Positions 3,684 through 14,723 of a stretch of DNA of 64,000 bases are shown here, piece by piece; within the stretch, counting starts at the first letter, position 1; every line of letters starts with the position of its first letter. The notes below the pieces were generated by a model. The model did not search any database. It had not been told where the DNA came from and saw only the letters and a list, made by a program, of their open reading frames with translations. Location: the NCBI GenBank assembly GCA_964605735.1, contig CAZSDS010000001.1, positions 406,559-470,558 on the forward strand, written 5' to 3'. The stretch comes from an uncultured Candidatus Saccharibacteria bacterium (GTDB lineage Bacteria; Patescibacteriota; Doudnabacteria; UBA920; O2-02-FULL-48-8). The position numbers and the translations under genes are program-made.

Positions 3684-5186
3684 TTAAATATCTTCCTTAA
3701 CTTTTACAAAATCATAGCCTTCTTGTTTTGATTTCTCAATGTATTCTTGAATCATATCCAGAGTTTGTTGAGGCGGATAAACTTCGCCTTTCTCAGGGTC
3801 AATTTCATCCCTGCGCAATTCTCTACCCTGGTCAGTCATAGTACCGATATGGAAAATCCTGATCCGGCCATGACCATTGCTGCTTAAAGCTTTTTTAAGC
3901 AGACTTTCGGATTTTAACTTTGTGCTTGGAGGGATGGCAACCACGTCATATGGGTTTCCGTGTATGATCTGAAGATCCATAGCCTGAAACTCACGCAAGC
4001 TATCAGTAGTGCCATGCACTCCTGCAATACGGCCAATCGTCGGCCTTATGCCGCTCACCTGTTCAATCAGCTCAGTTGTTTTCTTCACATCACCTAAATC
4101 CGCGCGCGGACCGATAAAGCGCTTTGCGTATTCTTTTATCCCTGCATTAGGCTTGGCGCCTTCTTGCGCCCATTCATGAACACCAATGTCATGCCCTTCA
4201 TCAATTATTCTTTTGATAATGTGTTCTCGGCCAGGAATAAGTGATCCGACTATAAAAAATGTAGCTTTGGCATTCTGTTCTTTCAGTATGTCTAAAAGTT
4301 TTTCAGTTTCTTCATTCGGACCATCGTCAAAAGTCAGAGCCATGACTTTTTTGCCTTCTTTTTCCAGCTGCTTCATCTTTTCCGGATTCAATTTCCAGTG
4401 GACGTTCTTCCCAGCTACCCATTCCTTGGCCCCGCTTCTTTCCATAGCCCATTCTATTTTTTCAATCAAGCCGCCCAATCCGATCATTTTCAAAGCACGC
4501 AGTTTATCTTGGCTAGGTTCAAACTTGCCTTCGCTTCCCATAACCTGCTTGGCAATTTCCGGGTTCAATCGGAACATGTTCACAATCTGCGTTTGGTTTT
4601 CCTGGGCGGAATGGAGGATGTCTTCCTTGAACTTCTTTGGGTGGAACAGTTCGGAATCTACCCAGCCGTCAGGGATGTCTGCAGAGTGTCTTTCCAGAAA
4701 ACCATTGAGACGTTCCTGGATCTCCAGTAATTTGTTAAGGAAATCCACTGAGAATTCCTGCATGTTCAATTCTTCCAATGCTTTTGCTTTCTGGTTGAAT
4801 TCAGGGTTTGCGAATTTCTGGACTACATAAAAAGACTGGCCTTCCTGGGAGGAGTCAGATGGTTCACCTTCCACGAACATTGCTTTTGGAAAGAGGTCGC
4901 CCAACTCTTCCTGAGCAGTTTCATAGAATTTCTTCAGTCTAACGAATTCCTCGTGGTTCTTGCCACCTTGGTCAAAATATTCTGTGACTGCGTATTCAGG
5001 CTTGTCAAAATCGCGTTCCTGTCCGCCTTCCAGTTCTATAACCGCTGCTGGCTCCCCAAGCTTATGGATATCAAACTCGTGGTTTTCGTGAACTGCTTCC
5101 AAGTCCCTGTTAAATGGATGCAAGTCTTTTGCTTCTTCTGGTATGTATTTCTCTGGGTTCATGTTACTACTGATAATAATTTTCAC
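3684..5186 (-). CDS. polysaccharide deacetylase (NodB homology) domain protein with large acidic N-terminal region and no signal peptide
   Basis: NodB motifs TFDDGP and HEW... with conserved His/Asp in the C-terminal half. N-terminal ~260 aa unassigned. Confidence 0.6.
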   Translation of the reverse strand: MKIIISSNMNPEKYIPEEAKDLHPFNRDLEAVHENHEFDIHKLGEPAAVIELEGGQERDFDKPEYAVTEYFDQGGKNHEEFVRLKKFYETAQEELGDLFPKAMFVEGEPSDSSQEGQSFYVVQKFANPEFNQKAKALEELNMQEFSVDFLNKLLEIQERLNGFLERHSADIPDGWVDSELFHPKKFKEDILHSAQENQTQIVNMFRLNPEIAKQVMGSEGKFEPSQDKLRALKMIGLGGLIEKIEWAMERSGAKEWVAGKNVHWKLNPEKMKQLEKEGKKVMALTFDDGPNEETEKLLDILKEQNAKATFFIVGSLIPGREHIIKRIIDEGHDIGVHEWAQEGAKPNAGIKEYAKRFIGPRADLGDVKKTTELIEQVSGIRPTIGRIAGVHGTTDSLREFQAMDLQIIHGNPYDVVAIPPSTKLKSESLLKKALSSNGHGRIRIFHIGTMTDQGRELRRDEIDPEKGEVYPPQQTLDMIQEYIEKSKQEGYDFVKVKEDI

Positions 5187-5193
5187 ACTCGTA

Positions 5194-6753
5194 CTACTTA
5201 AGTAAGAACCTTCTAAAGTACTCTCTTAACTTTTCATTATGAATATAGACATAGGTTCCATAAATACCACGTGTCAAAAGCGTTTTGTAAATATTGATGA
5301 TATACCTCTTTAGCTCTGCATCATCCCACACAGCTCGCTTTCCATTCGCGTCATAATATTTATCTTTATCAACAATAATTGCCTTTTTAGTTTCATCGTA
5401 ATCAATCTCAGGACCGATTATCACTCCTGCATAATTTAAATCATAACCCTGAATAGTATGAATACAGCCAACTTCATTAACGGCATTCTTGGAATTTACC
5501 CAGTCATGTAAAACACTGTTCCAGAACAGTTTGGTTTCTCCAATTACGATATCTGGAATATTCTTATCTTTTTTTGAGAGCCATGGCCATGCATAACCAG
5601 CAATTACTCGTGAAAGTTTATGCTCAGCATCTTTTTGCTTAATCAACTCTACAAGCTGACCAACACTGTCCAAAATTCTAAAATCATACTGTTGAATTTG
5701 CAGGCCATCAACAGGCAAACCTTCTAAAATGTTATCTATAGCTTTAATGTAGTTATCCCCGCCTTTTATTCTTACCTGAGCCTTTAAACTGTATTCCTTG
5801 CTTTCCAAGGATTTTACGTGTGTCGGAAGAATATCTGTTGGTCTTACAGATTGTTTTTCGTCATAAAATAAGATAATTCTCTTTGCAGAAACTTTAATCC
5901 AATCAAGTTCCGTAGCGTCGCCATTCATCCCCAACAATCTATTTGTTTCATCGAAACTTCTATAGTTTGTTAAATTTCTCCTCTGCCTTAATCTATGCGC
6001 CTCATCAACTATCAAAACATCATATTCCTTTTTCGTGACTTCGTTTGGCCCAATAACCATTGAGGGATTTAACCCTTTAATACTCTGAAAAACTCTCTTT
6101 AATGTTTTTCTTAGGGAGCCCATAGCAACTACCAAGGCAACATTTTTAACTTTTTGCTCAGTGAGTTGTTTTATTAAAAAAGTTGCAAGTATTGTTTTGC
6201 CGGTACCCGGACCTCCATGTATCAAAAAGTACCTATTACCATCTCGCTTCAACTCTTCAAGTATATCTTCTGCAATCTCTAACTGCTCGTTTGTTAAAGT
6301 TTTGTAAGGAGAGTATTTAAATAAATCACTGTTTCTGATTTGTACTAAATCTTTTTCGGCAATATTTGAAAGCTGGAGATCTCGCCAAAGTTGTTCGAAT
6401 TTTCCACTATACTTTTCCTTATCATAGTAGTTATGGTGCTGCAATCCTCCGTTGCTATTTTGTAATAAGTACTTACCGTCAGCGGCCAGATACTCAATTA
6501 ACCAAGCCTCGGCATCTAGTGTTGCTGAAGCATTATATTCTTCATCTGTGATGATATGAATTTTTTCTAAACCTTGTCTATCTGGATTTTTTAAATGATC
6601 CCTAGTTCTTTTATATGCATTTAAAGATTGGCCTACATACAACTCTTTATTGTTTTCAATAATATAAACAACTGGCCAATTATTGCCAAAGTTAAAGTGC
6701 TTTATTTTTTCAGCGCCTTCTTTACTAAAGGAGTAAGTCTTGAATACTGCCAT
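5194..6753 (-). CDS. GIY-YIG nuclease domain fused to DUF2075-type P-loop NTPase (Schlafen/helicase-like ATPase)
   Basis: N-terminal VVYIIEN...LYVGQS...YKRTRDH (GIY-YIG). Walker A HGGPGTGKT and Walker B/DEAH VLIVDEAHRL. Length and C-terminal region typical of DUF2075. Confidence 0.6.
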   Translation of the reverse strand: MAVFKTYSFSKEGAEKIKHFNFGNNWPVVYIIENNKELYVGQSLNAYKRTRDHLKNPDRQGLEKIHIITDEEYNASATLDAEAWLIEYLAADGKYLLQNSNGGLQHHNYYDKEKYSGKFEQLWRDLQLSNIAEKDLVQIRNSDLFKYSPYKTLTNEQLEIAEDILEELKRDGNRYFLIHGGPGTGKTILATFLIKQLTEQKVKNVALVVAMGSLRKTLKRVFQSIKGLNPSMVIGPNEVTKKEYDVLIVDEAHRLRQRRNLTNYRSFDETNRLLGMNGDATELDWIKVSAKRIILFYDEKQSVRPTDILPTHVKSLESKEYSLKAQVRIKGGDNYIKAIDNILEGLPVDGLQIQQYDFRILDSVGQLVELIKQKDAEHKLSRVIAGYAWPWLSKKDKNIPDIVIGETKLFWNSVLHDWVNSKNAVNEVGCIHTIQGYDLNYAGVIIGPEIDYDETKKAIIVDKDKYYDANGKRAVWDDAELKRYIINIYKTLLTRGIYGTYVYIHNEKLREYFRRFLLK

Positions 6754-6759
6754 GCCAGA

Positions 6760-7107
6760 TTAGAGTTGAGTGTATTTTGTATGTTTGCCTTTTGCTTTAT
6801 CTACAGGATACTTCTTTTCGTTTATTTCCATCTTCTTAAGAAAAGCTTGTTTCAGATCAATATCCAGGTCATGTGAAATAAGTAAAATCCAATATAGAGT
6901 ATCCACGACTTCTTCAGCTATATCTTCTTTGTGTTCAACTATATATTTCTCGATTTCTTCTTTACTTTTCCATTGGAAATGTTCAGCGACCTCAGCCGCC
7001 TCAAGCATCAAAGAAAGAGCCAAGTCTTTAGGATTATGGAACTGTTTCCAATCCCTCTCGTCTCTGTATTTAATTATTCGGTCTGTTAATTCCTCGATAT
7101 CAGACAT
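6760..7107 (-). CDS. MazG-like nucleoside triphosphate pyrophosphohydrolase (all-alpha NTP-PPase)
   Basis: 115-aa ORF with LALSLMLEAAEVAEHFQW...EEVVDTLYWIL pattern of the MazG/dCTP-pyrophosphatase family. 6-nt gap to the downstream ATPase gene. Confidence 0.65.
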   Translation of the reverse strand: MSDIEELTDRIIKYRDERDWKQFHNPKDLALSLMLEAAEVAEHFQWKSKEEIEKYIVEHKEDIAEEVVDTLYWILLISHDLDIDLKQAFLKKMEINEKKYPVDKAKGKHTKYTQL

Positions 7108-7131
7108 TGCTTTTATGGTTAATACTCTATA

Positions 7132-7160
7132 ACTATGCTAACGTTTGCTTTTTTTGTCAA
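7132..7160 (-). promoter_or_regulatory. Putative sigma70 promoter for the MazG / GIY-YIG-DUF2075 operon
   Basis: Minus-strand -35 TTGACA, 17-nt spacer, -10 CATAGT, ~25 nt upstream of the MazG-like start. Confidence 0.4.
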
Positions 7161-7173
7161 AAAAACGCCACTT

Positions 7174-7530
7174 TTATATTATTGGATCAAATTTCTTGAG
7201 TATGTAATGAGTAATACCAGCAAATATAATTATAATGACTGCACCCAACCATTGATTAAGACTACCTGTCTGTATTGCTACCATTAGTTGAAATATTCCA
7301 GTAACTGCCTGGATCAATGCAAACGCTGCAGCAATTTTTGAAAATCTATTCGCGCTCTCACTTTCTTTCTTCAGATTACTACTCAAGGATTTCATTTCTG
7401 ATAATAATTTTTTATTTACACACCTTGAAAGTTCCTCAGAAGCGAGAGCTGCGTGGACAGGCCCCACCTTATTAATCCATTTATGTAACTGCATCTCACT
7501 GGCTTTTTCAAGTTCTGGTGAAAAATTCAT
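7174..7530 (-). CDS. small 2-TM membrane protein (possible effector/holin-like partner, hypothetical)
   Basis: 118-aa ORF with a soluble helical N-terminus and two C-terminal TM helices. Starts 2 nt after the stop of the upstream Excalibur ORF. Confidence 0.4.
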   Translation of the reverse strand: MNFSPELEKASEMQLHKWINKVGPVHAALASEELSRCVNKKLLSEMKSLSSNLKKESESANRFSKIAAAFALIQAVTGIFQLMVAIQTGSLNQWLGAVIIIIFAGITHYILKKFDPII

Positions 7531-7531
7531 A

Positions 7532-8041
7532 TCATTCGCAAGCTAATCCGTCTTTATCACTATCAAGTTTATACTTATCTACACCAACAACTGTTGCTGG
7601 GCCCCTAAAGTACGCTGGCCCATCTCCACTACCGCCAGCACAATCCACATCACTGGCTATCGGCACACATCCACCAAAATAATTTGGATCACAACTTGAT
7701 GAAGTTGGTGCTGGAGTAGGTGCAGTTTTCTGTGCGGGCGTTGGATTTGGTAATGGAGTCGGCGTAACTTGCGGCTTTGTTGTCGTTGTTGGATTAGGGG
7801 TTGGCTGTAGAGTTGGTGTTGGCGTGACTTCCTTCAACTCAACTTCGCTTGAAGGAGTTGAAATTTCTGGCGCAGTGTTTTGTGGGGCATCTTGGACACT
7901 TGGCAGATCCAGTTGGTTGTTAACTGTTGTTGTCGATGACTACGGCTCGCTAATGCTAGCCAAACCAATAAAACCGGCAATAATTATGCTTGGGATAATA
8001 CCTTTTCTTTTGAACCATCTTTTTGGTGTAGATATTTCCAT
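7532..8041 (-). pseudogene. Secreted Pro/Thr-rich Excalibur (calcium-binding) domain protein interrupted by an in-frame TAG
   Basis: ATG at 8041-8039 opens a signal-peptide-like 33-aa ORF (MEISTPKRWFKRKGIIPSIIIAGFIGLASISEP), then TAG. The same frame continues for 34 codons into the listed TTG-start ORF 7532..7837, which ends in DCAGGSGDGP...DSDKDGLACE (Excalibur motif). TAG is a normal stop in this window (pnp and ileS end in TAG). Confidence 0.45.
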
Positions 8042-9802
8042 TTAACTATAAATTTTCTCAATTTTTGATTTTAATGGAAGTGGTATCTCGAATGCCTGAG
8101 CCGAAACAAGATTTAATGCTAAATAAGGCTTGTGTTTATCACTCGCTTGAGTAATACCTATTTCCTCGTCCAAGTCATTTATGAAAATTACACTATCCCC
8201 TATACTTCTATTTACCGTGGATTCGATTTTTGCCGATGATTGATCTGCACTCTGCAAAGCCTCAGATGATTTGCCAGACTGATGATCCTTATCATACACA
8301 GCTAAATATGAAATCTTAAACTTATTCAGTAAATGCACATACACTTGGATACTGTCTTTACTGCCGCAGTCTATTAAAGTGTAATCGTACCTAAAAATAC
8401 CTATTTTTTTCGCTAGATACGGTATAACTGTTTTTTCAGTAGCGCCCTCTAACAAAATTACTTTTTTAGCGAAAAATAGCTCACTGCGATCTGGATTGAG
8501 CCAGTATGTCATATTGAAATTTTTTTTATCATCACTCAAGGTAAATAATTCTTCTGAACATTGAAGAGTTTTACTTCCTTCCTCAAGATTCTTTTTATAA
8601 ACAATGACTATTGACTTATACGCTTCTAAATCTAAGAAAGAACTTGAGTGCGTTGACAATACTACTTGCGTTCCAGACTCGGATAGACTCTGCAAGGATG
8701 AGAACAGCTCTCGTTGAGCCTGAGGATGTAAATACAATTCAGGCTCTTCATAAAAAAGATAAATGGATTTCGAAGCAGAGCGACTTAATGTCTGTTCCTC
8801 TGAGATCTCAGTACTTGCTTTAACCCAAGCTTTAATGAGTGCAAAAATTAACGAACGCTGCAGTCCATTACCCTTCCTATCAACATCTGTGGGTACGCCG
8901 TCATCAACCCAAACAGAAGTCCCTAGACGCATAACCTCATCAATATCAGGCGGTGTTATTTCAATACTAATTTTTGTATCCCACTGCCTAAGTTCATCCT
9001 CAAGCAAACTCTCTAATTTGCTAATTTCGGCTGGTCTATTTTGGTTTTGAGCACCTGTAGAGACGGTTTTGTTTAAATTCTGTGCCAGTTCAGCAATTCT
9101 CTTTTTCGCATCCTTATAAGCATCGTTATTTTTTGACATCTCATTAATAACATTGGAAAAAAGCTGACTAAAAATTGATTTACTTTTTATGTTGAATTCA
9201 TCTCCGACGTTCTTTACCGCAGGCACAAAAAATACCTGACCAAATATACCTTGTGCGACAGATTTTAGGCCTAGAAAGTGAGAATGCTCCAATTGATATA
9301 AAAAGTTAACGGAACCAGTATGATCTTCAATATACTTTCTTTGGGCTTGTATTACCATCTCTTTTGTAACTCTTCCTTCATGGGGAATATATTGCAGAAG
9401 AGGTGTGCCTTGTATAACATCTCTGTTATTCAACTGGCCTGCACTCTCCTCTCGTAACCAACTATCTGAAGGTATCTGACAGTAGCCGTGATACTCAGGT
9501 GGATCACCCTTAATAACCTGCTTTCTTACAGTTATCGCTCCTTCACTGGTCAGATACTTTTTAAATTGATTTTTGTCATGATCATCCAGATCACAAAAAG
9601 TGACCTCGACATGCAACTCTTCTGATCCTTTATTAAAGTCCATTTCAGAAATTGAAATATACCCAAAAAAGAATAGCAGGGCAGTCAAAATATTTGACTT
9701 ACCATGATTATTTTGACCAATAAAAATCATCAAAGATTGAAAATCGACTTCACAATCCTTAATGGAGCGCCAGTTATGAATTCTTAGCTTCGAAATTCTC
9801 AA
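8042..9802 (-). CDS. OLD-family ATP-dependent endonuclease (N-terminal ABC/AAA15 ATPase plus C-terminal TOPRIM), class-1-like (no helicase partner)
   Basis: Start MRISKLRIHNWRSIKD, Walker A GQNNHGKSNIL, C-terminal TOPRIM VILLEGATEKTVIPYL. 586 aa, the same size as phage P2 Old. TTG start overlapping the upstream stop (TTGA). Confidence 0.8.
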   Translation of the reverse strand: MRISKLRIHNWRSIKDCEVDFQSLMIFIGQNNHGKSNILTALLFFFGYISISEMDFNKGSEELHVEVTFCDLDDHDKNQFKKYLTSEGAITVRKQVIKGDPPEYHGYCQIPSDSWLREESAGQLNNRDVIQGTPLLQYIPHEGRVTKEMVIQAQRKYIEDHTGSVNFLYQLEHSHFLGLKSVAQGIFGQVFFVPAVKNVGDEFNIKSKSIFSQLFSNVINEMSKNNDAYKDAKKRIAELAQNLNKTVSTGAQNQNRPAEISKLESLLEDELRQWDTKISIEITPPDIDEVMRLGTSVWVDDGVPTDVDRKGNGLQRSLIFALIKAWVKASTEISEEQTLSRSASKSIYLFYEEPELYLHPQAQRELFSSLQSLSESGTQVVLSTHSSSFLDLEAYKSIVIVYKKNLEEGSKTLQCSEELFTLSDDKKNFNMTYWLNPDRSELFFAKKVILLEGATEKTVIPYLAKKIGIFRYDYTLIDCGSKDSIQVYVHLLNKFKISYLAVYDKDHQSGKSSEALQSADQSSAKIESTVNRSIGDSVIFINDLDEEIGITQASDKHKPYLALNLVSAQAFEIPLPLKSKIEKIYS

Positions 9803-10005
9803 GCAATTTTAGTGTAGGAATAAGTATTTTTGACGTGATTTGCGAAAAAGCTACCCTTAGATCCAGCTGACATAAGTTGACTAAATACACCCTCCGGAAC
9901 TCCGTGATACTGGTATGTGCCACCATTCACAAATTCGACCTCTAATACACTAGCTTCGTACCCAATAGATCTAATATCACTTGAATTTACAGTTTGTCTC
10001 AACAT
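9799..10005 (-). CDS. KTSC domain protein
   Basis: 68-aa ORF with YQYHGVPEGVFSQLMSAGSKGSFFANHVKNTYSY, matching the KTSC (lysyl-tRNA-synthetase C-terminal-like) domain signature. Stop TGA overlaps the TTG start of the OLD gene. Confidence 0.65.
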   Translation of the reverse strand: MLRQTVNSSDIRSIGYEASVLEVEFVNGGTYQYHGVPEGVFSQLMSAGSKGSFFANHVKNTYSYTKIA

Positions 10006-10044
10006 ATTTTTTATTGAATAAATTATATATCAACTTATTATTAA

Positions 10045-10075
10045 ATAAAAACACCCTGAAAAGGGTATTTTTATT
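10045..10075 (-). terminator. rho-independent terminator after pnp (right edge of AT-rich island)
   Basis: Hairpin ACCCTGAAAAGGGT flanked by A/T runs, immediately downstream of the pnp TAG stop. Confidence 0.55.
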
Positions 10076-10076
10076 A

Positions 10077-12329
10077 CTAATGCCTTGCAAACCTTGGACC
10101 ACCTCTCCTGTGATCGCCATTTCCATGCCCATGACCGCCTCTGCCGTGGCCACCATGTCCGTGTCCGCCTCGTGAAGGCCTTGAACCGCCTTCTGGTCTG
10201 TCTGGCATGCCTTCTGGTTTTGGAATCATAACTCTGTGTGACAAATTCACTCGTCCCATTTGATCAATCTCAATCACTTTCACTTCCAACTCATCCCCAA
10301 TCTTCACAACATCCTCAACTTTCCCGACTCTTTCCCAACCCAGTTCTGAGATGTGCACCATGCCATCGTGTCCTGGCACTAATTCCACAAACGCACCAAA
10401 GTCCATGATGCGCACTACTTTTCCTTTAAAGACTTCGCCAACCTGAATCTCACGAGTCAGATCTTTGATCCACTGCACAGCCTTGGCACTTCCTTCAGCA
10501 TCATCTGAAGTGACCATAACCAAACCTGAATCTTCAATGTCGATCTGCACGCCAGTCTCAGCAATAATTTTGTTGATGACTTTACCGCCGGTTCCAATTA
10601 CATCGCGGATCTTTTCCGGATTAATGTGGAAAGAAACAATTCGCGGAGCCAGTGGCGACAAATCAGCGCGAGGCGCAGAAATCGCCTGCTTCATTACAGA
10701 CAGAATATGCATGCGGCCAGCTTTAGCGCCTTTGATGGCCTCAGCCAGAATATCAACCGTCAAACCCTTGGCCTTATTATCCATCTGAATTGCGGTAATG
10801 CCTTTTTCAGAGCCAGTGACTTTAAAGTCCATATCACCATTGCCGTCTTCAATTCCCTGAATGTCAGTCAGCACTTTGAACTTGCCGGATTTTTGATCAA
10901 AGATCAAACCCATGGCAACTCCACCGATCATATCAGAAATTGGCACGCCTGCATCCATCAAAGCCAGAGTTGAACCACAAGTAGAGCCCATGGATGTTGA
11001 ACCGTTTGAACCCAAAGCCTCAGAAACCAATCTTAATGTATAAGGGAATTTTTCTTTGTCAGGGATGACGACTTCTACTGCGCGCTCAGCCAAAGCTCCG
11101 TGTCCGATTTCTCTTCTTCCAGGGCCGCGCATAGGAGCGACTTCACCTACAGAGTAACCAGGGAAATTGTAATGGTGAATATAGCGCTTATGTGTTTCCA
11201 CAAAATCTTCCATGCCATCAAGAATCTGCGCATCACCGGATGAACCCAATGTGACAGTAGTTAAAATCTGAGTCTCGCCGCGGTTAAACAGCGCTGAGCC
11301 ATGAGTTCTAGGCAGTACGCCAACAGCACAGGAAACTTCTCTGGTCTTATCAAGCGGCCTTAAATCCACGCGCCTGTCGCGCTCTAAAATATTCTCACGA
11401 ATAACTTTCTTCAAAACCTTATCAAATGCCAAACCAAAATGCTGGGCAAAATTCAAAGTTTCATTAGAAGCAAAGTGCGTGGCCAGCTCTTCTGCCAAAG
11501 CTTTTTTAGCCGCATCAAGCCTTGCCTCACGCTCCGCCTTAGGGAATGTGCCATACAAAGCCTCTTCAATCTGCCCTTTTCTTTCAATCACAGCGTTTAA
11601 CACCGCTTCATCCGGCAAAACCAAAACAGGTTCGACTTTTTCCAGCCCAACCTTTTTCTTGATCTCTGCCTGCATTGCAGCCAGTTCGCCCAGGTAAGGC
11701 ATTGCAAAGCGCAATGCTTCAATCATGTCATCTTCTGAAACCTGTTTAGCACCTGCTTCCACCATCATGACATGCTCGCCGGAACCGGAAACCACCAGGT
11801 CCAAATCAGAAGCATTCTTCTGTTCGTAATTAGGGTTGATAATGAACTTACCGTCCACCCGTCCTACGCGCACGCCCGCGATCGGCCCCTCAAAAGGGAT
11901 GTCGGAAACTTCCAAGGCTGCGGAAGCGGCATTGATGGCCAGAACATCCGGATCATTGACTTCGTCAACTGACAAAATAGTCACGACAATCTGCACGTCA
12001 TTGCGCATGCCGTCCGGGAACAACGGACGCAAACTTCGGTCAACCAATCTGCCTGTTAAGATTGCATCATCTGTGGCGCGGCCTTCGCGTTTTATGAAGC
12101 GGGAACCTTTGATCTTTCCTGCCGCGTAAAGTCGTTCCTCATAATCAACCAAAAGCGGGAAGTAATCCATTCCTTCCCTGACCTTGTTGCTCATCACAGC
12201 TGTGGCCAAAACCACAGTATCACCCAAACGTGCCAAAACAGAGCCGTTTGCTTGTTGTGCCAACACCCCTGTTTCAAAGGAGAATTTCTTTCCGTCTATC
12301 TCCTTTTCTACTTTTTCTACTTTTTGCAT
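10077..12329 (-). CDS. pnp: polyribonucleotide nucleotidyltransferase (PNPase) with Gly/His-rich C-terminal tail
   Basis: Two RNase PH domains, KH and S1 domains recognisable. Adjacent to rpsO. Tail GGHGHGGHGRGGHGHGNGDHRRGG. Confidence 0.95.
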   Translation of the reverse strand: MQKVEKVEKEIDGKKFSFETGVLAQQANGSVLARLGDTVVLATAVMSNKVREGMDYFPLLVDYEERLYAAGKIKGSRFIKREGRATDDAILTGRLVDRSLRPLFPDGMRNDVQIVVTILSVDEVNDPDVLAINAASAALEVSDIPFEGPIAGVRVGRVDGKFIINPNYEQKNASDLDLVVSGSGEHVMMVEAGAKQVSEDDMIEALRFAMPYLGELAAMQAEIKKKVGLEKVEPVLVLPDEAVLNAVIERKGQIEEALYGTFPKAEREARLDAAKKALAEELATHFASNETLNFAQHFGLAFDKVLKKVIRENILERDRRVDLRPLDKTREVSCAVGVLPRTHGSALFNRGETQILTTVTLGSSGDAQILDGMEDFVETHKRYIHHYNFPGYSVGEVAPMRGPGRREIGHGALAERAVEVVIPDKEKFPYTLRLVSEALGSNGSTSMGSTCGSTLALMDAGVPISDMIGGVAMGLIFDQKSGKFKVLTDIQGIEDGNGDMDFKVTGSEKGITAIQMDNKAKGLTVDILAEAIKGAKAGRMHILSVMKQAISAPRADLSPLAPRIVSFHINPEKIRDVIGTGGKVINKIIAETGVQIDIEDSGLVMVTSDDAEGSAKAVQWIKDLTREIQVGEVFKGKVVRIMDFGAFVELVPGHDGMVHISELGWERVGKVEDVVKIGDELEVKVIEIDQMGRVNLSHRVMIPKPEGMPDRPEGGSRPSRGGHGHGGHGRGGHGHGNGDHRRGGPRFARH

Positions 12330-13748: not shown

Positions 13749-14723
13749 ATGCCAGAAAAACAAATCGAAATAAAATCTAAACTCCATCGCTACTACATCC
13801 AATTCCTAGAATATTTGGAAATCGAACGAAACCGATCCAGATTAACCCTGCGCAACTACGACCACTATCTCAAAAGATTTGTGGACTTTTGCGCTAAAAA
13901 ATACGGCGTAACAGACCCAGAAGAAATTGACCTTGAATTGATCCGTTCATATCGCCTTTTTCTGAACCGGTTTGAAGAAAACGGCAAACCCCTGAAAATG
14001 ATCACCCAAAACTATCACTTGATTGCCCTTCGCAGTTTTTTCAAATACCTCTCCAGGCGCGACATAAAGTCCCTAGCCGCAGAAAAAATTGAACTGCCAA
14101 AGCCGCCTTCCAGGCACGTGGAATTTTTGGAACCCGCAGACGTGGCAAATCTGATTGACTCCACCAAACAGGAAAAAGACAAACTGACCCGCCTGCGCGA
14201 CAAAGCCATTTTGGAAACCTTGTTTTCAACCGGCCTGCGCATCTCTGAGCTCTGCAACCTGAACAAAGATTCCATCAACACCAAACGCCGGGAATTTTCC
14301 GTAAAAGGCAAGGGTGACAAAATCCGCCTGGTCTTTTTGTCTGACCGGGCCATTGCCTCAATAGAGGAGTACCTGAAAGCCCGGGACGACAATTCCAAAG
14401 CCCTGTTCATCCGCCACGACCATAAAGAGTCCGTGGAAAAGCAAATGAAATCATTCAGCGAGAAAGCCATGGGCCTGACCCCGCGCACCGTCCAGCGCAT
14501 TATAAAAAAATATGCCAAACTTGCCGGCATAATGAAAAATATCAGCCCGCACACCCTGAGGCATTCGTTCGCCACTGATCTGCTGTCCAACGGCGCTGAT
14601 ATCCGCGCCGTGCAGGAGCTTTTGGGCCACGCTTCAATCTCAACCACCCAAATTTACACCCATTTGACCAACCGCCGCCTGAAAGACGTTTACGACAAAT
14701 ACCACAATGACAAGAACAAGTAG
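13749..14723 (+). CDS. xerC: tyrosine site-specific recombinase (XerC/XerD family)
   Basis: C-terminal catalytic motifs RHSFAT...LLGHASISTTQIYTHL with the Tyr nucleophile. 324 aa. Confidence 0.85.
   Translation: MPEKQIEIKSKLHRYYIQFLEYLEIERNRSRLTLRNYDHYLKRFVDFCAKKYGVTDPEEIDLELIRSYRLFLNRFEENGKPLKMITQNYHLIALRSFFKYLSRRDIKSLAAEKIELPKPPSRHVEFLEPADVANLIDSTKQEKDKLTRLRDKAILETLFSTGLRISELCNLNKDSINTKRREFSVKGKGDKIRLVFLSDRAIASIEEYLKARDDNSKALFIRHDHKESVEKQMKSFSEKAMGLTPRTVQRIIKKYAKLAGIMKNISPHTLRHSFATDLLSNGADIRAVQELLGHASISTTQIYTHLTNRRLKDVYDKYHNDKNK

Follow-up and report, generated by a model that had tools for sequence, protein, structure and literature searches.

A KTSC-domain gene overlapping an OLD-family nuclease gene in a Candidatus Doudnabacteria genome: a recurrent but optional pairing and a candidate defence operon

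What does a 68-residue KTSC-domain protein do beside a nuclease of the OLD family? The question is raised by two genes on the minus strand of a 64,000-nucleotide stretch of contig CAZSDS010000001.1 (assembly GCA_964605735.1, an uncultured Candidatus Doudnabacteria bacterium), which is referred to here as the window. An earlier note, made from the letters of the window and a list of its open reading frames (ORFs), had placed a KTSC gene and an OLD gene at this locus, had read the overlap of the TGA stop of the one with the TTG start of the other as a sign of coupled expression, and had proposed that the two form a candidate two-gene defence module. Both ORFs are present where that note placed them, and they have 4 nt in common:

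9799..10005, minus strand: KTSC-domain gene, 68 aa, ATG start
8042..9802, minus strand: OLD-family ATPase-TOPRIM nuclease gene, 586 aa, TTG start
9799..9802, minus strand: TTGA, the 4 nt common to both ORFs, read from the sequence

On the minus strand KTSC is the upstream gene and OLD the second, and the KTSC stop codon TGA (9801-9799) overlaps the OLD start codon TTG (9802-9800; junction sequence GCTTGAGAATTT). Based on this overlap the two genes appear to be translationally coupled, as had been suggested. The TTG start is supported by the N-terminus of the OLD protein, MRISKLRIHNWRSIKD, with which homologues align from residue 1. There was no Shine-Dalgarno motif before OLD, which is uninformative because such motifs are rare throughout this genome. 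We read the pair as a horizontally acquired operon in which a class-1-type OLD defence nuclease is accompanied by a coupled, nucleic-acid-binding KTSC accessory subunit, and we place the probability of this reading at roughly 55%. The evidence that bears on it is the identity of the two proteins, the recurrence of their pairing in other genomes and the setting of the pair in the window.

Profile searches agreed with the domain assignments of the earlier note. The small protein matched the Pfam KTSC family (PF13619) with an E-value of 1.8e-21 across 58/58 profile positions, has the compact beta-alpha fold of the family and carries its central YxY motif as Y31-Q-Y33, which is invariant. No PADLOC model matched it. 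The name of the KTSC domain derives from the C-terminus of some lysyl-tRNA synthetases. A KTSC family protein of the archaeon Methanolobus vulcani, which is not known to be linked to OLD, is deposited as PDB 7x8c, and the sole characterised KTSC homologue, an archaeal protein, is reportedly single-stranded DNA (ssDNA)-binding, as the title of Tian et al. 2022 (cited in PMC11237433) and the PDB 7x8c entry have it.

The larger protein was matched by AAA_15 (2.6e-38, aa 176-389), AAA_21 (2.4e-14, aa 24-391) and OLD-like_TOPRIM (PF20469, 3.4e-16, aa 443-506), giving the following layout:

8630..9802, minus strand: ABC-type ATPase region of OLD, aa 1-391, from the AAA_21 and AAA_15 matches
~9695-9718, minus strand: Walker A motif GQNNHGKS of OLD, aa 29-36, read from the sequence
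8285..8476, minus strand: TOPRIM nuclease core of OLD, aa 443-506, from the PF20469 match

An alignment of 13 sequences showed G29, G34, K35, S36, E352, E353 and H385 of the ATPase and E452, G453, D478, D504 and D506 of the TOPRIM domain to be invariant. The Walker A motif, a signature-like GNGLQR (aa 311-316), EEPE (aa 352-355) and the H-loop histidine (H385) all fall in invariant columns. The protein has the N-terminal ABC-type ATPase motifs and the C-terminal TOPRIM domain with Glu and DxD that are expected of the OLD family, and its catalytic motifs are intact. The top PADLOC model was 'Old' (1e-76), with GajA at 1e-39 or weaker and AriA matching the ATPase half only. The Thermus scotoductus OLD structure (PDB 6p74) aligned at 6.6e-20 over the C-terminal part only, and P2 Old was 30% identical across 49% of the query; by these comparisons the window OLD appears distant from the characterised OLDs.

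To what extent the pairing recurs was studied from both sides. The OLD-centred survey took one genome per species, and the best 80 (46-62% identity) of the 187 loci that it gave were used; these came from many phyla and included one archaeal metagenome-assembled genome, and KTSC ORFs beside OLD were detected in flanks of up to 4 kb on each side with an iterated KTSC hidden Markov model. A same-strand KTSC gene adjoined OLD at 20 of these best 80 loci, while no KTSC match lay anywhere in the flanks of the other 60. The adjacency of KTSC and OLD is therefore far above chance. Most of the KTSC-positive loci belong to one OLD clade found in Bacteroidota and Ignavibacteriota; outside this main clade there were two Dojkabacteria, a Sideroxydans and the window. 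The distance from KTSC stop to OLD start was -4 to +4 nt at the 11 junctions read in the OLD subfamily of the window, and -4 to +16 nt at the 18 junctions read with KTSC upstream, which cover several OLD subfamilies and many phyla. The subfamily of the window is rare in viral contigs, where it had two close relatives, both without KTSC. Within this subfamily the pairwise distances of KTSC and of OLD are correlated (r = 0.475, Mantel p ~4e-4, n = 18).

The KTSC-centred survey used a KTSC alignment as the query, and 80 metagenomic and 80 viral loci (160 in all) were kept. As the profile used for the search came from KTSC genes linked to OLD, this sample is biased, and its percentages cannot be carried over to KTSC genes in general. 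An OLD-family gene was present at 20 of the 80 metagenomic loci (16 of the 54 that are 3 kb or longer) and at 0 of the 80 viral loci. The metagenomic OLDs belong to several subfamilies, are 613-815 aa long and have 'Old', GajA or AriA as their best PADLOC model; mostly, KTSC lay 9-16 nt upstream or ~10 nt downstream of them. Loci with KTSC downstream of OLD include L015, L085, L100 and L095. The independent gene calls of public assemblies gave the same KTSC-OLD arrangements. A Pfam scan of 54 tight same-strand neighbours of KTSC identified the following partners:

HerA-like ATPase: 19 of 54, the commonest
OLD family: 10-11 of 54
DUF2779: 4 of 54
Endonuc_Holl: 2 of 54
RNase_H_2: 2 of 54
SIR2_2: 2 of 54
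NYN: 2 of 54
HNH: 1 of 54

Methyltransferases of restriction-modification (R-M) systems were part of the remainder. KTSC is thus not specific to OLD. In addition to these separate genes, KTSC was found fused to the C-terminus of PIN_8 nucleases (L016:3031-3996, L243-L246), of AlbA_2/HATPase_c_4 proteins with a winged helix-turn-helix (L008:1443-3299, L047, L058) and of HerA ATPases that have a SIR2-like gene before them (L101, L114, L118). Two further loci (L248, L249) have a ~700-aa protein, weakly matched by AAA_13, with a separate KTSC gene ~100 nt downstream of it. KTSC is also fused to HerA in the validated SIR2-HerA defence system of Paenibacillus (PDB 8wiv), where it occupies residues 628-696 of the HerA chain, within the region (residues 576-696) that the SIR2-HerA paper named the 'C-terminal arm domain' (PMC11472057). 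Loci with HerA, KTSC and an endoDNase were remarked on by Aravind's group as 'unpublished observations' (PMC9503650), and this remark is the only printed hint of KTSC in defence that we found.

The setting of the pair in the window is that of an island. By its PNPase, which has homologues there at 88% identity, the host belongs to Candidatus Doudnabacteria. The two genes lie directly downstream of rpsO and pnp, and GC content is 0.35-0.40 over ~5.0-10.0 kb compared with 0.46-0.50 in the flanks. A Doudnabacteria relative, GCA_034680565.1, has the same gene order from pnp upstream, through a XerC-like integrase and an ABC transporter, and synteny with it breaks immediately past pnp (stop at 10077), exactly at the insertion of KTSC and OLD. 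The relative has no KTSC or OLD after pnp, and the genes that follow pnp there (DoxX, TGT, an aminoacyl-tRNA synthetase and an M16 peptidase) were not found in the window. No direct or inverted repeats flank the ends of the island. Between pnp and KTSC there is a short intergenic region:

10006..10076, minus strand: stretch from the pnp stop to the KTSC start, containing a terminator-like hairpin (10053-10066) and, from a consensus scan, a weak promoter-like match (10033-10006)

The hairpin is palindromic (ACCCT-loop-AGGGT), and on either strand a run of T comes after it. The consensus scan gave no more promoter-like matches here than in shuffled sequence, so these features do no more than hint that KTSC and OLD form a separate transcription unit. 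The exact 68-aa sequence of the window KTSC was not found in a collection of 15 billion proteins that does contain the neighbouring OLD and PNPase; the gene calling of the source annotation probably missed the small gene.

In the main KTSC-positive clade the pair is part of a larger cassette, in which KTSC comes first, followed in some loci by a 72-aa protein, then by OLD and finally by a protein of 343 aa that we refer to as C2. C2 directly follows OLD at L006, L008, L016, L022, L024, L030, L054, L055, L057, L058, L063, L078, L079 and L247; in cassettes of the Bacteroidota type it always has this position, and the 14 sequences aligned are 64-92% identical. It had no match in Pfam, PADLOC, NCBIfam or PDB sequences. 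On visual reading, its consensus GDIICE...IECKFD looks PD-(D/E)xK-like. The 72-aa protein was present at L054 (3783-3998), L055, L058, L063, L022, L030, L020 and L008, usually between KTSC and OLD; in L030 it comes behind C2, and L020, a locus without KTSC or C2, has it immediately behind OLD. Pfam detected nothing in this protein and hhalign aligned it with the KTSC profile at E = 4e-5 and a probability of 70%. By this alignment it looks like a divergent KTSC, such that some cassettes would have two KTSC-like genes in tandem. Several KTSC copies per island were seen at L008, L016, L055 and L063.

How do these loci relate to the OLD systems already described? OLD proteins are classed by synteny as standalone (class 1), with a GajB helicase (class 2, Gabija), retron-associated (class 3), split (class 4, PARIS) and Cran1 (class 5), and 11 additional, uncharacterised clades are known (PMC12392090, PMC12796447). 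Like the class 1 OLDs (P2 Old, Vc OLD, Thermus scotoductus OLD (Ts OLD) and Escherichia coli YbjD/OldB), the window OLD is without a helicase, a reverse transcriptase or a split, and most of its orthologues are likewise solitary, in variable neighbourhoods. However, class 1 is defined as a single-gene class (PMC12392090, PMC12796447), and the window and 25% of the orthologues have a coupled KTSC. The window locus lies outside that definition; the protein itself is class-1-like. Defence activity within class 1 has been established for P2 Old and Vc OLD (PMC12392090, PMC12445682). Vc OLD nicks DNA and blocks replication of ICP1, and both it and Ts OLD act on DNA (PMC12392090), while P2 Old cleaves the anticodon stems of tRNAs in vivo (PMC12445682).

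The genes that follow OLD in the window are these:

7532-7837, minus strand: 101-aa Pro/Thr-rich protein with an Excalibur-like motif at its end, between OLD and the MazG-like gene
7174-7530, minus strand: 118-aa protein with a weak CorA-like C-terminal match, 1 nt after the 101-aa gene
6760-7107, minus strand: MazG-like gene (PF12643, 3.6e-11), 6 nt upstream of the helicase gene
5194-6753, minus strand: 519-aa GIY-YIG and SLFN-g3/DUF2075 helicase (PF09848, 1.6e-64; PADLOC Nhi, 5.7e-19, and AbiO, 7.9e-19)

Gabija likewise consists of an OLD-family ATPase-TOPRIM protein (GajA) and a second co-transcribed gene, but there the second gene is a downstream UvrD-like helicase, in contrast to the upstream 68-aa KTSC of the window. 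It was rejected based on the next downstream genes (101 aa and 118 aa) having no helicase domain and on the PADLOC scores of 'Old' (1e-76) and GajA (1e-39). A retron-associated OLD was rejected since no reverse transcriptase domain is present in the six proteins scanned around the pair and no Rfam match above chance, and no retron RNA, was found in 5000-10500. PARIS was rejected because ATPase and TOPRIM are in one 586-aa ORF, of which the AriA model covers only the ATPase half. With no reverse transcriptase, retron RNA, adjacent UvrD-like helicase or ATPase/TOPRIM split, the exclusion of Gabija, PARIS and a retron link that the earlier note had made was confirmed by the domain, PADLOC and Rfam scans. 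Its remark that no UvrD-like helicase follows OLD is correct for the adjacent genes and requires qualification beyond them, as the GIY-YIG and SLFN-g3 protein, a superfamily 1 helicase, lies 1.3 kb downstream of OLD, three genes off, and is matched by GajB at only E = 0.0012. Neither the 101-aa nor the 118-aa gene recurs beside OLD in other loci. The MazG-like gene and the GIY-YIG/SLFN-g3 helicase gene form a second candidate two-gene defence module in the low-GC stretch.

Class 5 was also rejected, the host being a bacterium, the KTSC partner soluble and no membrane-protein neighbour recurring in the 80 loci. A HerA-KTSC system was rejected because no HerA, DUF87 or FtsK domain was present in the six scanned proteins. 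In SIR2-HerA of Paenibacillus sp. 453MF (PDB 8wiv) KTSC likewise accompanies an oligomeric defence ATPase, there by fusion to HerA, whereas the window, in difference from both SIR2-HerA and HerA-nuclease systems, has no HerA, SIR2 or DUF4297; here KTSC is made as a polypeptide of its own and is partnered by an ABC-type OLD ATPase-nuclease. In the literature that was searched no description of KTSC with OLD was found, and the KTSC-domain and KTSC-phage papers that were found concern other subjects. As far as we can tell, the OLD protein belongs to a known kind and its recurrent partnership with KTSC is an undescribed variant, in keeping with the earlier note, which knew of no such system. Of the two-gene module proposed in that note, the recurrent adjacency stands, as it was seen at 20 of the 80 orthologous loci, at metagenomic loci and in independent gene calls. 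The module as such does not stand in full: KTSC is facultative and not OLD-specific, and the cassette of the main clade is bigger, as it includes C2. That KTSC may be a sensor or modulator of OLD, as the note suggested, is a plausible hypothesis.

Based on these comparisons, we propose that a two-gene KTSC-OLD operon entered the Candidatus Doudnabacteria genome by horizontal transfer. Its OLD is a catalytically intact class-1-type nuclease, and the characterised members of that family stop phages from replicating, either by nicking or cutting DNA or by cleaving tRNA. Since the stop-start overlap is expected to couple translation, KTSC would be produced whenever OLD is. We speculate that KTSC is a trans-acting, nucleic-acid-binding accessory subunit that directs or gates the OLD ATPase-nuclease, and that the trigger may be a nucleic acid appearing in infection, for instance replication or recombination intermediates rich in ssDNA. 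The same module would then serve beside, or fused to, HerA, PIN_8, AlbA_2/HATPase_c_4 proteins and possibly an AAA_13-like ATPase. That the pair acts in defence, that its two proteins interact physically, what KTSC binds and in which direction it regulates OLD are points that we infer, and KTSC may act as an adaptor, a sensor or an inhibitor. Because KTSC is optional and no KTSC-OLD fusion was found, our confidence in any specific role is moderate.

Several observations weigh against KTSC being an accessory subunit of OLD. The orthologues without KTSC number 60 of 80 (75%) and include the closest relatives of the window, so KTSC is an optional, or facultative, partner, and an OLD of this subfamily evidently works without it. 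No other neighbour gene recurs at those 60 loci. The closest OLD relatives, L081 and L082 (~63% identity), have no KTSC and lie inside an R-M operon; the order of that cassette is helix-turn-helix protein, N6/N4 methyltransferase, BsaWI-like endonuclease, OLD and methyltransferase. KTSC is approximately neutral in charge by residue count. Across OLD subfamilies the KTSC and OLD distances are uncorrelated (r = 0.18, p = 0.08), and KTSC proteins are ~45-57% identical irrespective of their partner, which disfavours a partner-specific interface. This constant level of identity suggests instead that the ligand of KTSC is partner-independent, for example a nucleic acid, rather than a co-evolving protein interface. 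The ORFs of the 160 KTSC-centred loci included no KTSC-OLD fusion, and the 120 best KTSC homologues were all proteins of 70-99 aa with KTSC only; a physical interaction of KTSC with OLD itself can therefore not be argued from Rosetta-stone fusions. Finally, as C2 is conserved in the main KTSC-positive clade and no C2 homologue is present in the window, the pair could be a remnant of the larger cassette.

Other explanations of the pair were considered. One is that KTSC is an antitoxin-like inhibitor, made in coupled excess over OLD, which would hold the potentially toxic ATPase-nuclease in check and be removed upon a phage cue such as competing ssDNA, a phage protein or proteolysis; the link between the genes would then be real and the regulation negative. 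KTSC is usually upstream and overlaps the start of OLD, here a weak TTG, which is the typical order of antitoxin and then toxin, and OLD proteins can be toxic, as P2 Old kills recBC cells (PMC12392090) and YbjD mutants are cytotoxic (PMC13261556). KTSC homologues, which could be anti-defence mimics, also turned up in 117 deposited phage genomes, among them those of Escherichia, Vibrio, Streptococcus and Klebsiella phages. In one of these, Flavonifractor phage Chenonceau (ON453904.1), the homologue at 13903-14103 overlaps the annotation of a Lar-like restriction-alleviation gene; from these phage records, use of KTSC by phages in counter-defence is a possibility. However, most orthologues are stable without KTSC, such that an OLD of this subfamily needs no antidote, KTSC is also found downstream of OLD (at the four loci named above), and the C-terminal fusions to HerA, PIN_8 and AlbA_2/HATPase_c_4 fit a working domain better than a detachable inhibitor. 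We regard an inhibitor as unlikely. Slightly less likely still is that KTSC is an adaptor that presents tRNA to the TOPRIM domain, in which case the system would cleave tRNA, or its anticodon arm, in the manner of P2 Old or PARIS AriB. KTSC is fused to PIN_8 and occurs beside NYN genes, and both PIN and NYN are RNase folds; it also lies ~100 nt downstream of the protein with the weak AAA_13 match, AAA_13 being the family to which the ATPases of the anticodon nucleases PrrC and RloC belong. Cleavage of tRNA is known for P2 Old (PMC12445682), AriB is reported to be a TOPRIM nuclease that cleaves tRNA (PMC12409363), and KTSC has been termed an RNA-binding lysyl-tRNA-synthetase domain (PMC7824862). 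Against such an adaptor, Vc OLD and Ts OLD work on DNA (PMC12392090), and the commonest partner of KTSC, HerA, is a DNA translocase or helicase. Near the pair there is no gene for a tRNA or for tRNA repair; the tRNA genes of the window are all at 42.5-43.6 kb. The sole biochemical lead for KTSC, reportedly, is the ssDNA binding named in the title of Tian et al. 2022.

The remaining two explanations deny either the link between the genes or their role in defence. OLD could be a self-sufficient class 1 nuclease and KTSC an independent gene that gathers in defence islands, for instance as a hitch-hiker or as a general DNA-binding or regulatory protein, and that merely abuts OLD. That 75% of the orthologues are solitary, with the nearest OLD relatives of the window among those without KTSC, that the neighbours of KTSC are heterogeneous and that an island can have several KTSC copies (L008, L016, L055 and L063) would all fit. 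We nevertheless consider the lack of any link improbable: the genes are on the same strand in nearly all cases with gaps of -4 to +16 nt at 18 upstream junctions, the flanks of the 60 KTSC-negative loci are without any KTSC match, the KTSC and OLD distances correlate within the subfamily, and the fusions of KTSC to other defence enzymes show that it works jointly with such enzymes. The pair might, alternatively, serve host DNA metabolism. The archaeal class 5 OLD Cran1 of the Sulfolobales, which is in a conserved operon with a membrane protein, reportedly has repair or cell-cycle roles, showing that OLD proteins can have such functions (PMC12796447), and the pair adjoins the housekeeping genes rpsO and pnp. 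This is very improbable given that a close relative has no pair at the same locus, that the GC content of the pair is low relative to its flanks, and that the orthologues are patchy across phyla and occur amid R-M, PIN, MmeI-like and Nhi-like genes.

The class 1 OLDs are the least understood of the OLD systems: Vc OLD is reported to nick DNA, and P2 Old to cleave tRNA. An optional, putatively nucleic-acid-binding partner of ~70 aa offers a simple experimental handle, as members of one OLD subfamily that have KTSC can be set against members that lack it. The locus also exemplifies a defence island in a reduced genome of the candidate phyla radiation, on a contig of 797 kb, and KTSC could be added to the models of defence-finding programs. 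As KTSC recurs beside HerA-type, PIN_8 and possibly AAA_13-type proteins, its role could explain an accessory function common to several defence families. We suggest, tentatively and as a proposal we are inclined to doubt, that KTSC is a portable nucleic-acid-sensing or targeting subunit, acting in trans or in cis, of several unrelated anti-phage effector families (OLD nucleases, HerA translocases, PIN_8 nucleases and possibly AAA_13-type ATPases), and that KTSC-OLD is a distinct class of OLD in the classification by synteny. If this is true, the activation of KTSC-OLD or its choice of target would depend on the ligand of KTSC, whether ssDNA or tRNA, and the portable KTSC would be a general accessory module with a role comparable to that of CARF or WYL domains.

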